NCBI GenBank assembly: GCA_964525595.1
Contig: CAZGHF010000001.1
Span: forward strand, 29,509-93,508
Direction of reading: 5' to 3'
Length of the DNA stretch: 64,000 nucleotides
Source: an uncultured Candidatus Saccharibacteria bacterium
Lineage (GTDB): Bacteria > Patescibacteriota > Minisyncoccia > UBA6257 > GWB1-50-10
Shown here: positions 2,364 through 9,033 of the stretch, piece after piece
Layout: every line of letters starts with the position of its first letter
Position numbering within the stretch: position 1 is the first letter of the stretch
The notes under the pieces: generated by a model
Told to the model about the DNA's origin: nothing
The model's database searches: none
The model's input: only the letters and a program-made list of their open reading frames with translations
Program-made: the position numbers and the translations under genes

Positions 2364-2657
2364 ATGTTGTTCACTCTTTATATACTTTATAGTTTAAAGA
2401 CGCCCCGGACTTACGTAGGTTATACCGCTGACTTGAAAGAGAGATTGAGATATCACAATAGCGGTAGAGTAAGAGCAACAAAACCCTATGTGCCGTGGAA
2501 AATTATTTATACGGAAGATAGTTTAACTAAAGAAGAAGCTAAGAAAAGAGAAATTTATTGGAAAAGTGGCGCTGGCAGACGCAATATCAATAGAATCTTA
2601 AGTGGGTTCCCGCCCCAATTGAAATCGGGGCGAGGCTCGCTCAAGACCGAGTCTTGA
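2364..2657 (+). CDS. GIY-YIG nuclease superfamily protein (short YhbQ/UPF0213-like)
   Basis: Translation ...TYVGYTADLKERLRYHNSGRV...KPYVPWKIIYTE...KEEAKKREIYWKSGAGRRNI matches the GIY-YIG motif pattern (GY-YxG, R, HN, E, K-N). Start taken at the ATG at 2364, just after the tRNA. The C-terminal tail runs into hairpin-rich sequence, so the true stop may be earlier. Confidence 0.65.
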   Translation: MLFTLYILYSLKTPRTYVGYTADLKERLRYHNSGRVRATKPYVPWKIIYTEDSLTKEEAKKREIYWKSGAGRRNINRILSGFPPQLKSGRGSLKTES

Positions 2658-2661
2658 GCGG

Positions 2662-2681
2662 CGAGTCCCACCCTCGGCACA
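2662..2681 (+). repeat. 20-bp direct repeat of the tRNA-Leu 3' end (cgagtcccaccctcggcaca)
   Basis: Identical to 2344..2363 (last T-loop nucleotides, T-stem 3' half, acceptor 3' half, discriminator). It is a partial tRNA 3' fragment and not a functional tRNA. Confidence 0.8.
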
Positions 2682-2727
2682 TTCAGTAAAATTGACAAAA
2701 GATTTAATGGGGAATAGTTTGTAAGGT

Positions 2728-3210
2728 ATGGAATTGCTTTTTAATAGTTCTTTTGGTTTAAAACTTGACGTGGCTCAGGTGGTGGCGGAGGTTTTGCGTT
2801 TCATGAAAAGCGACCCGAAGCGGCAATACAAAATCATTATCGGGACCGACTCCGAAGCGCTCCGGAGCAAGAACGCCGACTTTGTAACGGCGGTGGTGGT
2901 TCACCGAATCGGCAACGGCGGCCGTTATTTCTGGCGCCGACTCCAAGCCGGCAAGTTCCACACTATTCGCGACCGGATAATAAAAGAAGTGATGCTTTCG
3001 CTTGAAGCCGCTCACCTCTTTTTGGGAGAACTTAAAAAAGATTCTTCATCTAAAAACTGGAGTTTTGAGATTCACGCCGATATCGGCGAGAACGGGCAAA
3101 CAAAGGTGCTTATTCAGGAAGTGGTTGGAATGATTCGGGCCAATAATTTTGAGGTAAAAACGAAGCCGGAGAGTTACGCCGCGACCAAGGTAGCCGATAG
3201 GCATGTCTAA
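2728..3210 (+). CDS. DUF458 / YkuK-like RNase H-fold protein
   Basis: KIIIGTDSE...ADFVTAVVVHRIGNGGRYF...FEIHADIGENG resembles the YkuK/DUF458 family, recalled from memory. Confidence 0.5.
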   Translation: MELLFNSSFGLKLDVAQVVAEVLRFMKSDPKRQYKIIIGTDSEALRSKNADFVTAVVVHRIGNGGRYFWRRLQAGKFHTIRDRIIKEVMLSLEAAHLFLGELKKDSSSKNWSFEIHADIGENGQTKVLIQEVVGMIRANNFEVKTKPESYAATKVADRHV

Positions 3211-3781
3211 AAAAATCGTTTTTGACATTGAAACCAAAAACACCTTCGCCGACGTCGGCGGAGACCAGAATATTGATAAGCTTGAAGTTTCGGTGGTCGG
3301 GGTTTATTCGTACGACAAGGACGAATACATCTGTTTTGACGAGAACGAACTTGATGAGCTGGGTAGGTTTCTGAAGAGTGCCAGCCCCCTCATCGGTTTT
3401 AGCAGTAAGAGGTTTGATGTGCCGGTCTTGGAAAAATATTTTGATTTTAAATTATCCGCCGTTCCCCATTACGACATCCTGGAAGAGATTACGAAAGCTT
3501 TCGGTCGGCGAATTGGCTTGGGCGTGCTTGCCGAGGCCAATCTCGGCATCGGCAAAACCAGCCACGGCCTTGAGGCAATCGGGATGTACGCTCGCGGCGA
3601 GATGGAGAAGTTAAAAAATTACTGCCTTCAGGATGTAAAGATAACCAAAGAGATATTCGACCTTATTCGCAACCAGGGTTATCTTTGGATTCCCCAGCGG
3701 GACGTGCCGGACATGATTAAACTCCCTCTGACTTATAAAGAGGAAGATTCGCCGCAAGCTGGATTATTTGGTAATATTTAA
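3203..3781 (+). CDS. DEDDy-type 3'-5' exonuclease domain protein (DnaQ/PolB-exo-like)
   Basis: Exo I VFDIET, Exo II GFSSKRFDVPVL, Exo III YCLQDV. Overlaps the upstream gene by 8 nt. Confidence 0.6.
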   Translation: MSKKIVFDIETKNTFADVGGDQNIDKLEVSVVGVYSYDKDEYICFDENELDELGRFLKSASPLIGFSSKRFDVPVLEKYFDFKLSAVPHYDILEEITKAFGRRIGLGVLAEANLGIGKTSHGLEAIGMYARGEMEKLKNYCLQDVKITKEIFDLIRNQGYLWIPQRDVPDMIKLPLTYKEEDSPQAGLFGNI

Positions 3782-3787
3782 AGAGAT

Positions 3788-4111
3788 ATGAGTCCGAAGA
3801 AAAATAAAACTTTGGTTACAGTTGTGGTGCTTTTCTTGGCTTTTGGCTTGGTAATCGCTTATGTGCCGCTTCTTTTTGCTCCTTCATCTGATGAACCGAG
3901 CCAGGTTTATTTTAAGGAACAGCAGCAAGAGATTCCGGTTGATGTACCGGCTGAATTACCGGTAACAGCCCAACTCACATTACCGGTTACCGAGCCGGAA
4001 ACGGAAGTTGCTACCACGACTCCAATTGAAGAAGAAATAAGCCTACCCGATAGTTTCAGCGGTCTTGAAGAAGAAAGTGAATCTTTAGAAGACTTGTTCG
4101 ACGGCTTTTAA
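3788..4111 (+). CDS. hypothetical small membrane-anchored protein with acidic C-terminus
   Basis: 107-aa ORF with N-terminal TM segment (LVTVVVLFLAFGLVIAYVPLLF) and E/D-rich tail. Confidence 0.4.
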   Translation: MSPKKNKTLVTVVVLFLAFGLVIAYVPLLFAPSSDEPSQVYFKEQQQEIPVDVPAELPVTAQLTLPVTEPETEVATTTPIEEEISLPDSFSGLEEESESLEDLFDGF

Positions 4112-4228: not shown

Positions 4229-4975
4229 ATGGGAATGGTTCTGAAAGTTCTGGAGAGAGCGGGGCCTCGGCCGGAGGATTTCGAGAAGGGAGCGGTTCAC
4301 GAGCTTGAGGAAGCTTACCGGTTAAGGAAAACCGCAGTTCGGGCGTCCAAGGCCGGTATCCGAGCCGCGAAGAAGAGAGACGCCCGCGGTGTCAGTCACG
4401 AAAAGGCAAAAATCCAACAGTGTATGCAGAAGATTCAGGCTTTAGACTTGGTGCCCGCCTGGAGACGTGCTGAGTTCATTGACCAAGTGGCGGCTGAACT
4501 CGTGGAACTCGTCTGCTTCGAGTGGCTCTATCCGTACGTCTTCTTCGGGGACGAAATCGGTTCGCCGGAGTTCCTCTCGGCAAAACGGTTGGAAGTGTCA
4601 CCTCAGGCGTGGTATCACGGCATTGCCGACGTTCCCGGGGAGCTGGGAAAGGCAGTTACGAGGTATCGCCGGGGTCGGCTTCCACTGAAGGAGAAAGTTG
4701 TTCTTCGTGAGCGGCTGCTAGTGGTCATTCAGGACATCATCTCCTACCTTACGGATGCGACTGATGAGAGCGTTCTCGAGATAACCGGTCATGAGAAAGA
4801 TTTCCGTCGCCGGTTTGAGGGTAAGGTTGCCCGGATTGGCGCGCTCATCAACAGATTGAACGAGGAGATGATTGAATTGCTAGACCGGATTCAACTCCTG
4901 AAGGAAATCCGTCAGGCGGTGAGCGGAACTCCTCGAGAAGAAAAAGAAGCTGGCGGTGAGGACGACTCTTCCTGA
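4229..4975 (+). CDS. hypothetical protein on a GC-rich island
   Basis: 248-aa ORF preceded by GGGGAGGG 8 nt upstream of the ATG. About 60-65% GC against a ~43% background. No family recognised. Confidence 0.55.
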   Translation: MGMVLKVLERAGPRPEDFEKGAVHELEEAYRLRKTAVRASKAGIRAAKKRDARGVSHEKAKIQQCMQKIQALDLVPAWRRAEFIDQVAAELVELVCFEWLYPYVFFGDEIGSPEFLSAKRLEVSPQAWYHGIADVPGELGKAVTRYRRGRLPLKEKVVLRERLLVVIQDIISYLTDATDESVLEITGHEKDFRRRFEGKVARIGALINRLNEEMIELLDRIQLLKEIRQAVSGTPREEKEAGGEDDSS

Positions 4976-8466: not shown

Positions 8467-9033
8467 ATGGCAATTGACGCTAACGAAAAAGCTCATCCCT
8501 CTCAGAGAGTGGGAGTTTTTGTTGATGTCCAGAACATTTATCACTCAGCCAAGAACCTTTTAAATTCTCGGGTAAACTTCAAGGAACTTTTAAAGAATAT
8601 CGTCGGCGACCGGCATCTTATAAGAGCGATGGCCTACGTCGTCACGAGTGAGACGGCTTTGGGTGAAGAATCTTTTTTTGAAGCTCTCCGGAAAACCGGC
8701 TTTGAACTTCGAAATAAGGATCTCCTTATTTATCCGGGCGGTGTCAAGAAAGCCGACTGGGACGTAGGACTTGCAGTTGACGCCATCAGAATGGCGACTT
8801 CTCTCGATGTAATAATCCTCGTGACCGGCGACGGCGATTTCGTTCCTCTGGTTGAATACTTGAAATGGGGTTTAGGCAAACAGGTTGAAGTAGCGGCTTT
8901 TAGCCGGACCACCTCTTCTCGGCTGAAGGAGTCGGCTGACAATTTTGTTGAATTGGAAAACATTCCCCGCATTCTTCTTAGAATCAGGAAAAAAGCAGTC
9001 GCCAACAATATGAATAAAGGCAAACGGCGTTAA
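8467..9033 (+). CDS. NYN domain (LabA-like PIN-fold) protein
   Basis: VFVDVQNIYHSAK...KADWDVGLAVDAI...DVIILVTGDGDFVPLVEYL is the LabA/NYN pattern. Confidence 0.7.
   Translation: MAIDANEKAHPSQRVGVFVDVQNIYHSAKNLLNSRVNFKELLKNIVGDRHLIRAMAYVVTSETALGEESFFEALRKTGFELRNKDLLIYPGGVKKADWDVGLAVDAIRMATSLDVIILVTGDGDFVPLVEYLKWGLGKQVEVAAFSRTTSSRLKESADNFVELENIPRILLRIRKKAVANNMNKGKRR

Follow-up and report, generated by a model that had tools for sequence, protein, structure and literature searches.

A candidate homing-type GIY-YIG cassette at a tRNA-Leu gene and a conserved YkuK–exonuclease operon in a Patescibacteria genome

The genes considered here lie near the start of a 64,000-nucleotide (nt) stretch of contig CAZGHF010000001.1 (GenBank assembly GCA_964525595.1, positions 29,509 to 93,508 of the forward strand) from an uncultured Candidatus Saccharibacteria bacterium, referred to as the window. 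Between positions 2278 and 4111, on the + strand, five features follow one another: a tRNA-Leu(tag) gene and the genes for a small GIY-YIG nuclease, a DUF458/YkuK protein, an exonuclease and a membrane protein. The initial annotation reported the latter four as co-oriented open reading frames (ORFs); all are present, coordinates included, and their fold assignments are upheld by Pfam (PF01541, PF04308, and PF13482 together with PF01612 for the exonuclease, whose DEDDy motifs are invariant). Overlooked in that description was a perfect 20-nt direct repeat around the GIY-YIG ORF. In our view the interval probably contains two independent entities, a homing-type cassette at tRNA-Leu(tag) (2344–2681) and a conserved, coupled operon (2728–4111). 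Their proximity is incidental, the target of the cassette being the tRNA and not the operon.

All close homologues of the window proteins are found in metagenome-assembled genomes of Patescibacteria (Candidate Phyla Radiation (CPR), Paceibacteria/Jorgensenbacteria-like). The European Nucleotide Archive scaffold BAEC19-1_SAMN10404973 scaffold_85 matches the stretch with one mismatch over 6210 nt, and positions 2278–2727 are no assembly artefact, because the same sequence is present in three public assemblies (L169, L170 and L081; L numbers denote loci throughout). The tRNA gene and the cassette comprise the following features:

2235–2263, + strand: promoter-like sequence TTGTCA-17-TATAAT, 11 of 12 matches, 14 nt 5' of tRNA-Leu
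2278–2362, + strand: intact tRNA-Leu(tag), CCA not encoded (ARAGORN; Rfam tRNA, 57.5 bits)
2344–2363, + strand: direct repeat copy 1, CGAGTCCCACCCTCGGCACA, 100% identity between copies, spacing 318 nt
2364–2657, + strand: GIY-YIG nuclease ORF, 97 amino acids (aa), UPF0213/Slx1-like branch, ATG 1 nt after the tRNA end
2602–2609, + strand: T-stem 5' strand (GTGGG) and TTC, the 5' half of a second, interrupted T-arm
2611–2632, + strand: hairpin 1 (CGCCCC...GGGGCG), 98.5% of alignment cells paired, 6 of 10 pairs compensatory
2633–2637, + strand: linker AGGCT between the hairpins, invariant columns
2638–2660, + strand: hairpin 2 (CGCTCAAGA...TCTTGAGCG), includes the TGA stop of the ORF, 97.7% of cells paired, 6 of 9 pairs compensatory
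2662–2681, + strand: direct repeat copy 2, a displaced tRNA 3' end with the T-loop 3' half, T-stem 3' strand CCCAC, acceptor 3' strand and discriminator

The TTGTCA...TATAAT sequence also precedes tRNA-Leu in relatives. Repeat copy 1 spans the 3' part of the T-loop, the 3' strands of the T-stem and the acceptor stem and the discriminator of the functional tRNA. The second copy of the tRNA 3' end is located, together with a further promoter-like sequence (TTGACA-17-TAGTTT), in the 70-nt gap between the GIY-YIG ORF and the DUF458 gene. The protein encoded between the repeats matches PF01541 with 52.6 bits against a cut-off of 22.6 (E = 5.7e-14), and profile matches in PDB are to the UPF0213 structures 1zg2 (8.7e-11) and 1ywl (2.7e-9) and to SLX1 (1.2e-6). 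Among the catalytic residues in 38 homologues, Y6 is nearly invariant and Y17, G19, R27, H31 and E63 are invariant. The ratio of non-synonymous to synonymous substitutions (dN/dS) is 0.07–0.09 in comparison with the homologues of L003 and L004, indicating purifying selection. The protein has no match in PHROGs, and NCBIfam gave no match for any of the four proteins. In the source contig (L169, 2437–3001) and in L170, public gene calls leave the tRNA–GIY-YIG stretch empty of genes, and the protein database holds no identical copy of the window protein, the best match being 78%. Since the ORF was missed in the source contig, such elements, and small tRNA-abutting ORFs systematically, may be under-annotated.

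The last ~17 codons of the GIY-YIG ORF are a translated double-hairpin module, and the amino acids they encode vary in step with the stems. In 5' to 3' order, the module consists of 5 nt that pair with the T-stem strand of the tRNA remnant, TTC and C, hairpin 1 (CGCC...GGCG), AGGCT, hairpin 2 (CGC...GCG), G and C(G/A)AnT, followed by the T-stem 3' strand and the acceptor 3' strand. In the second tRNA-end copy, the universal T-loop motif is thereby interrupted between GGTTC and CRAnTCC. Twenty-five distinct modules with 54 hairpins were collected, with 37 stems of 9–12 bp, and homologous remnants follow all 25. In a sequence-only MAFFT alignment of 20 modules, 95.3% of the cells are paired and 15 of 24 pairs have changed on both sides (compensatory changes); none of 500 shuffles reached the observed value, and pairing with slid partners is 32–50%. 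The 5 nt before TTC also match the T-stem strand of their own remnant better than that of others (4.36 pairing against 3.76 when permuted, 0 of 5000 permutations). The module is a selected, conserved structure. G-U pairs are nearly absent from the two hairpins (3 of ~375 cells), which hints at a constraint at the DNA level or on both strands rather than on an RNA.

Several known kinds of element were considered for the module and rejected. With Rfam 15, the tRNA is the sole match between 2000 and 5200 at E<=1, and at the gathering score five related loci gave tRNAs only. A dispersed repeat is not indicated, the motif GGCGAGGCTCGC occurring once in the window and the covariance model R1 finding only 4 full copies in 1.17 Mb. 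An archaeal-type bulge-helix-bulge intron, judged by eye, would need a central 4-bp helix that is impossible between the intron start and the 3' exon, and splicing would be needless given the intact tRNA copy. A group I intron is incompatible with a module of 52 nt.

The cassette is present in some relatives and absent from others. A scan with the DUF458 alignment, taking one genome per species, yielded 80 loci from many Paceibacteria-type lineages, and relatives were ranked by concatenated DUF458 and exonuclease identity and placed in a neighbour-joining tree. The nearest relatives of the window are L161 (92%), L162/L163 (89%), L164 (85%) and L166 (84%), with L002 and L006 further off. GIY-YIG lies upstream of DUF458 in only two of the 80 genome loci, L003 and L004. 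In L161, L162/L163, L164, L166, L002 and L006 the site is empty, and tRNA-Leu(tag) is followed without interruption by the promoter-like sequence and DUF458. The site polymorphism among close relatives that is looked for in a homing gene is thus found, the window, L003 and L004 being filled. L004 is the sister of the empty L002, with 91% protein identity. Its tRNA-Leu (acceptor GCCGAGG), however, is 93% identical to the window/L162 allele and 76% to the GGGCAGG-type of L002. The L004 GIY-YIG ORF is followed by a remnant ending in ...CAAGTCCCACCCTGCCCAC and then by ACTTCGACTACGCTCAGTGTAAACA. This remnant (CCCTGCCCAC) and the downstream flank match the L002/L161-type tRNA end and the L161 flank: the acceptor part is of the L002/L161 type, and the flank is homologous to the post-tRNA sequence of L161 and continuous with the resident flank. 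L004 therefore combines a foreign tRNA allele with a native 3' end and flank downstream, the co-conversion of flanking markers known from homing genes, which implies that the resident tRNA was overwritten by an incoming cassette of tRNA and ORF. Of the resident tRNA of L004, only the last ~10 nt are left, along with its flank, and the right junction lies within the T-stem/acceptor region. Upstream of their present tRNA, L003 and L001 carry 10–12 nt left over from the 5' part of older tRNA-Leu alleles, and across these relatives the acceptor types of tRNA-Leu are discordant with the host tree.

The association with tRNA genes extends beyond this locus. A metagenome scan gave 85 ORFs homologous to the GIY-YIG gene. 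For 51 of them, a tRNA of the same orientation ends no more than 200 nt upstream, whereas from the density of 75 tRNAs in 1.1 Mb of genome loci we estimate that ~1% would be so placed. The tRNAs beside them are those for Leu, Arg, Lys, Pro, Gly, Asp and Ala. Thirty-three ORFs carry a C-terminal 'GFPP...RGS' tail, and their ATG is located within 10 nt after the tRNA in 24 of the 27 that have one; 33 of the 85 homologous ORFs end in a double hairpin that splits the T-loop motif of a displaced tRNA copy. Exact repeats of the tRNA tail are found downstream of tRNAs only, with zero in the direction controls. As the null for tail repeats is contaminated by the general similarity of tRNA ends, we rely instead on these exact repeats with direction controls, on the alignment and on the flank comparison in L004. 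At several loci the remnant is unlike the adjacent tRNA, as expected of a displaced resident end. The module was not found in IMG/VR viral contigs, where the only two matches to its pattern are chance matches in GC-rich coding DNA without hairpins, tRNA or GIY-YIG; a phage origin was therefore rejected.

Some of the related loci have unusual arrangements. In L126 (1221–1745; also L137) an older tRNA-Gly copy contains a two-hairpin module in the anticodon loop and a second module in the T-loop. A complete tRNA-Gly(ccc) is enclosed by the 13-bp stem of hairpin 1 of the second module and the GIY-YIG ORF by the 12-bp stem of its hairpin 2, and the displaced 3' end follows. This nesting suggests insertion into hairpin loops, but it was seen in none of the other loci. 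A GIY-YIG ORF in a hairpin loop is thus confined to L126 and L137, and over 67 loci the inverted repeats flanking the ORF do not exceed the permuted control; an ORF between inverted repeats was rejected as a general rule. L047 (7942–8031) carries a module with interrupted T-arm and remnant 13 nt after an intact tRNA and without a GIY-YIG ORF. In L134 (2780–2990; also L160) two partial tRNA 3' halves, both with a module in the T-loop, stand one after the other between an intact tRNA upstream and a GIY-YIG ORF downstream. Inserts without an ORF, ~165–180 nt long, are located directly 3' of tRNA-Leu, tRNA-Val and tRNA-Met in L001 (7724–7920), L022 (5923–6105) and L029 (6886–7065), respectively. 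They start with a terminator-like hairpin, finish with a 15–18-nt exact copy of the 3' end of their own tRNA and contain a 'G(G)GAATCGAAC'-type motif, which is antisense to the T-loop/T-stem; the L001 insert occupies the same tRNA-Leu/DUF458 site as the window cassette. They may represent another class of tRNA-targeted insert, one without coding capacity. In L007 (7238–7734) and L017 (5755–6723) the usually tight tRNA-Ile(tat)/tRNA-Val(tac) pair after FtsH is split by ~480–500 nt, and in L017 a GIY-YIG ORF lies between FtsH and tRNA-Ile; these spacings are probably further insertions at tRNA genes. Another mobile element is found at the tRNA-Leu locus of L164 (1636–2375; also L165), where a divergent Y1 (HUH, IS200/IS605- or RAYT-like) transposase gene just upstream of the tRNA has near-identical palindromes, TTTACGAGGTT(T/A)AACCTCGTAAA, on both flanks.

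By analogy with T4 SegB, the interval 2344–2681 is best read as a homing-type selfish cassette built on a 97-aa Slx1/UPF0213-like nuclease. The nuclease would cut a tRNA gene that lacks the element, with the break in or close to the T-arm; in the empty allele it is expected in or near GGTTCGAGTCC. Repair would then copy the cassette from a filled allele; homology on the left would be provided by the tRNA body, and on the right by the T-stem/acceptor 3' copy. In the course of this the cassette would carry or co-convert a working tRNA and leave the old 3' end behind; as it brings a working tRNA, the host would lose nothing. It would land between the tRNA and the promoter of the next gene. No promoter for the GIY-YIG gene itself was detectable in a consensus scan, the only strong promoter-like site being that upstream of the tRNA, and hence we infer co-transcription with the tRNA, with expression probably by read-through from the tRNA promoter and a near-leaderless mRNA whose 5' end would arise by tRNA 3' processing.

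Several points weigh against this reading. The GIY-YIG domain covers residues 4–72 of 97, so that the protein is a catalytic domain alone, without the joined sequence-specific DNA-binding domain of homing enzymes. Among solved structures it is closest to structure-specific nucleases (UPF0213, SLX1) rather than to Seg or I-TevI enzymes. In the intact tRNA copy the T-loop motif stays unbroken, which makes its escape from cutting a difficulty for the homing scheme, and the scheme assigns no function to the invariant features of the hairpins. Also, synonymous divergence between cassettes is near saturation (dS at least 1), so that no very recent transfer was caught, and no single population was seen with both filled and empty alleles.

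The second entity, downstream of the cassette, is made up of three genes preceded by a promoter-like sequence:

2692–2720, + strand: promoter-like sequence TTGACA-17-TAGTTT, 7-nt distance from its end to the DUF458 ATG, under threshold in the consensus scan
2728–3210, + strand: DUF458/YkuK protein, predicted RNase H-like, 160 aa (PF04308)
3203–3781, + strand: stand-alone DEDDy 3'–5' exonuclease, 192 aa (PF13482, PF01612)
3788–4111, + strand: membrane protein, 107 aa, with one N-terminal helix (KNKTLVTVVVLF..AYVPLLF) and an acidic tail

The exonuclease gene directly follows DUF458 in 76 of 79 informative loci, one further contig ending just after DUF458; the co-occurrence of the two genes in relatives, which the initial annotation had proposed as a check, is therefore strong. 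The pair is found in loci with Jorgensen-, Lipton-, Brenner-, Wolfe- and Falkowbacteria labels and in Minisyncoccia, and its identity across loci is 60–92%. In the alignments, columns are on average 74% identical for DUF458 and 70% for the exonuclease, unusually high values for CPR. Another gene follows DUF458 in L052, L065 and L077. In L052 (8512–10002) and L077 (8605–10023) a cysteine-desulfurase-like gene takes the place of the exonuclease; a partial match to covariance model R1 (8964–9020) lies inside this ORF in L052. Overlapping or abutting ends had been reported for all four genes of the window. This holds for DUF458 and the exonuclease, where an 8-nt overlap (exonuclease ATG at 3203, DUF458 TAA at 3208–3210) implies translational coupling, whereas 6 nt separate the exonuclease from the membrane protein gene and 70 nt the GIY-YIG ORF from DUF458. 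A TTGACA-17-TA(C/G)TTT sequence, with its end ~7 nt from the DUF458 start codon, is kept directly after tRNA-Leu in the empty-site loci L002, L161, L162, L164 and L166 and no Shine-Dalgarno sequence is visible, suggesting a leaderless mRNA for the operon. Frequent neighbours of the operon are FtsH and tRNA genes (Leu, or Ile-Val). A small ORF with a KNK..VVV..AYVPLLF helix is located 3' of the exonuclease in ~27 of the 76 loci, including all closest relatives, and the 107-aa membrane protein, which has no family match, is the third operon gene in the Jorgensenbacteria-like clade. No match to the five proteins was obtained in PADLOC-DB 2.0 at E<=0.01. Given its high conservation, its synteny and this negative result, 2728–4111 is a conserved housekeeping or core operon of Paceibacteria-type CPR and not a variable defence island.

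DUF458 matches PF04308 over profile positions 1–143 of 145 (E = 2.1e-48, 164.4 bits against a cut-off of 25) and has four invariant acidic residues (D41, E87, D118 and D157). Its AlphaFold2 model has a predicted local distance difference test score (pLDDT) of 75 and gives weak matches to RNase H-like folds; PDB searches by sequence gave nothing meaningful for either DUF458 or the exonuclease. To our knowledge, no member of the DUF458/YkuK family has been characterised. The family has been placed in the RNase H1 clade, with a predicted DEDD-type site (PMC3985635). The window protein resembles Bacillus subtilis YkuK (PF04308, COG1978) in its full-length match and single domain; the papers found on YkuK do not mention its pairing with a DEDDy exonuclease. 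The exonuclease matches PF13482 (E = 1.9e-9) and PF01612 (E = 4.4e-7) and is of the DEDDy type because Y140/D144 of Exo III are invariant, together with D8/E10 of Exo I and D72 of Exo II (26 sequences). The best Foldseek matches of its AlphaFold2 model (pLDDT 90) are the proofreading domains of T7, KOD and RB69 polymerases (E 7e-8 to 1e-4, probability 1.00), and among phage families phrog_403, 'DNA polymerase exonuclease subunit', matches it best. It shares its DEDDy motifs and fold with the proofreading domains of family A and B polymerases and with stand-alone PF13482/PF10108 'PolB-like' exonucleases. In contrast to polymerase proofreading domains, it is a stand-alone protein of 192 aa without a polymerase domain, and it is coupled to YkuK. 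Our best guess is that YkuK would make an endonucleolytic cut, after which the exonuclease would trim RNA/DNA hybrids or DNA 3' ends in the 3'–5' direction, in replication or repair. YkuK has been without a function for 20 years, and a near-obligatory, coupled partner in Paceibacteria gives a concrete system in which to search for its substrate.

The gene that follows the operon (4229–4975, 248 aa) is GC-rich, with 55% GC against 45% for the window, which places it in the top 2% of 750-nt windows. It had been described as foreign-looking, a view that does not hold up: fast-evolving homologues are found at the same, syntenic position in L005, L006 and L161, and the gene is probably native. A translin/TRAX-like RNase was considered from weak matches (NCBIfam PRK14562, E 4e-4, far below the cut-off; PDB 3zc1, archaeal TRAX/translin-type, E 0.037) and rejected, a 4-sequence profile failing to reproduce them.

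Other explanations of the cassette have to be set against homing. In one, the hosts would long have passed on the GIY-YIG gene vertically, with repeated losses, and the repeat would be a relic of an integrase-borne island or a local duplication. The cassettes are indeed as diverged as their hosts (78% aa identity between window and L004; dS ~1), and recombination between the 20-nt repeats would precisely restore the empty site. Repeats of a tRNA 3' end, here perfect, 20 nt long and present on either border, are also the classic footprint of tyrosine-integrase islands; however, the 318-bp unit contains no integrase gene or other cargo, only the GIY-YIG ORF. Vertical inheritance with loss is also at odds with the combination in L004 of a tRNA allele foreign to its host lineage and a native remnant and flank, with the recurrence of the same architecture at seven or more tRNA specificities, and with a remnant that is always cut at one T-loop position and accompanied by a conserved module. 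We regard it as unlikely. It could also be imagined that the hairpins and the 20-nt tRNA-end copy act as RNA, stabilizing the 3' end of the GIY-YIG mRNA or serving as a processing signal or, in the boldest form, as an omega-RNA-like scaffold with a 20-nt guide against matching tRNA genes. A structured element that overlaps the 3' end of a nuclease ORF, with ~20 nt of target-identical sequence behind it, is a layout resembling that of TnpB/IscB; the element also covaries strongly and must be co-transcribed with the tRNA. The scarcity of G-U pairs favours a constraint on DNA or both strands, however, and the remnant T-stem strand, paired with the upstream 5 nt, would not be free. Rfam gave no match, a catalytic domain of 97 aa has no known means of holding a guide, and the remnants that differ from the adjacent tRNA are those of a displaced resident end. 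A role as RNA therefore appears decidedly improbable, and we keep to the homing reading.

The initial annotation had seen in the tRNA-adjacent set of nucleases the kind of context in which defence or DNA-processing modules are found. In the fullest form of that idea the four genes would be a single functional unit, with the nucleases acting jointly and anchored by the membrane protein. The genes are compact and co-oriented, the three nuclease folds are confirmed, and combinations of nucleases beside tRNA genes are typical of defence islands. Nevertheless, GIY-YIG accompanies the pair in only the two loci mentioned and is missing from the closest relatives, it has its own tRNA-end repeat boundaries and recurs beside other tRNAs without DUF458 or exonuclease, and a promoter-like site separates it from DUF458. 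The pair itself is conserved, syntenic and core-like rather than patchy, and PADLOC is negative. One joint system is thus barely conceivable, and the false lead of a three-nuclease defence module can be removed. The claim that the arrangement is undescribed survives for the DUF458–DEDDy pairing, of which we found no description in the searchable literature, and not for the four genes, which are not one system. For the pair, the main alternative to a role on DNA is that it matures stable RNAs, such as the 3' trailers of tRNA or rRNA, in the manner of RNase D/T. The exonuclease matches PF01612, a family that also holds RNase D, and the tRNA-Leu of the window has no encoded CCA and hence needs 3' processing. 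In ~1/4–1/3 of loci the operon is located just downstream of co-oriented tRNAs (Leu, or Ile-Val after FtsH), and this frequent position of DUF458 just 3' of tRNA genes could equally hint at RNA processing. On the other hand, proofreading domains of DNA polymerases lead the structural matches, RNase D being absent from the 50 best matches listed, the phage family is a DNA polymerase exonuclease subunit, no HRDC or other RNA-binding domain is present, and YkuK groups with RNase H1. RNA maturation is therefore less likely, though not remote, and replication or repair remains our preferred role for the pair.

Taken together, one may tentatively go further, to a reading that falls somewhat short of what we would call likely. 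According to this, tRNA, mini-GIY-YIG and double hairpin would represent an undescribed class of cellular homing elements of CPR, in which an Slx1/UPF0213-like, structure-specific nuclease without a DNA-binding domain targets T-arm hairpins, and occasionally other hairpin loops, and drives horizontal replacement of tRNA alleles. The T-loop hairpins would be a recognition or immunity structure, the nuclease would be made from a leaderless mRNA derived from the tRNA transcript, and YkuK-DEDDy would be a core, as yet unnamed processing complex of Paceibacteria. A 318-bp element appears to overwrite tRNA genes of the reduced CPR genomes while keeping them functional, and tRNA-Leu alleles that depart from the host phylogeny matter for the use of tRNA genes and synteny in these lineages.

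Parts of this arrangement are known from other systems. The covarying, perfect DNA-type hairpins at the end of an element, by a small nuclease gene, resemble the ends of IS200/IS605, REP/RAYT and integron attC sites. Unlike in those systems, the nuclease is GIY-YIG and not HUH, there is one copy per locus, the hairpins lie inside a tRNA T-loop copy and the window holds no dispersed repeat family. With UPF0213 (YhbQ/YazA; 1zg2, 1ywl) and SLX1 the protein has a minimal URI-type catalytic domain in common; SLX1, in contrast, requires SLX4 and carries a RING domain. We know of no UPF0213/SLX1 family member reported as tRNA-linked or mobile. Mobile GIY-YIG and LAGLIDADG ORFs of fungal mitochondria (e.g. 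Allomyces atp6) reportedly insert in the 3' part of a gene and supply a replacement 3' end, and double-hairpin elements are said to accompany such ORFs in Allomyces mitochondrial DNA. There, as in the CPR cassette, the invader supplies a functional gene end and the displaced resident end remains downstream; the cassette differs in that its target is a bacterial tRNA gene and not a protein-coding gene, and in that its hairpins are fixed inside the displaced T-loop.

The closest parallel drawn here is to SegB of phage T4, a free-standing GIY-YIG homing endonuclease in a tRNA cluster that needs the TpsiC stem-loop motif GGTTCRANTCC, cuts many tRNA genes and spreads together with neighbouring tRNA genes (PMC2330249). 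In both cases a GIY-YIG gene is lodged at tRNA genes and absent from the homologous loci of relatives, and the recognition motif of SegB is the very motif split by the module in the CPR cassette. The neighbouring tRNA is carried along as well, a whole tRNA-Leu allele having been replaced in L004. Strictly speaking, however, the CPR cassette does not belong to the Seg family: its location is a cellular chromosome, a search of IMG/VR did not recover it, and its ORF abuts the tRNA 3' end and comes with a second copy of that end and the conserved double hairpin. Its predicted nuclease has 97 aa, is UPF0213/SLX1-like and lacks a DNA-binding domain. If the homing reading is correct, SegB-type homing at tRNA genes would extend from phages to cellular chromosomes, where it would make use of a minimal nuclease and conserved DNA hairpins.

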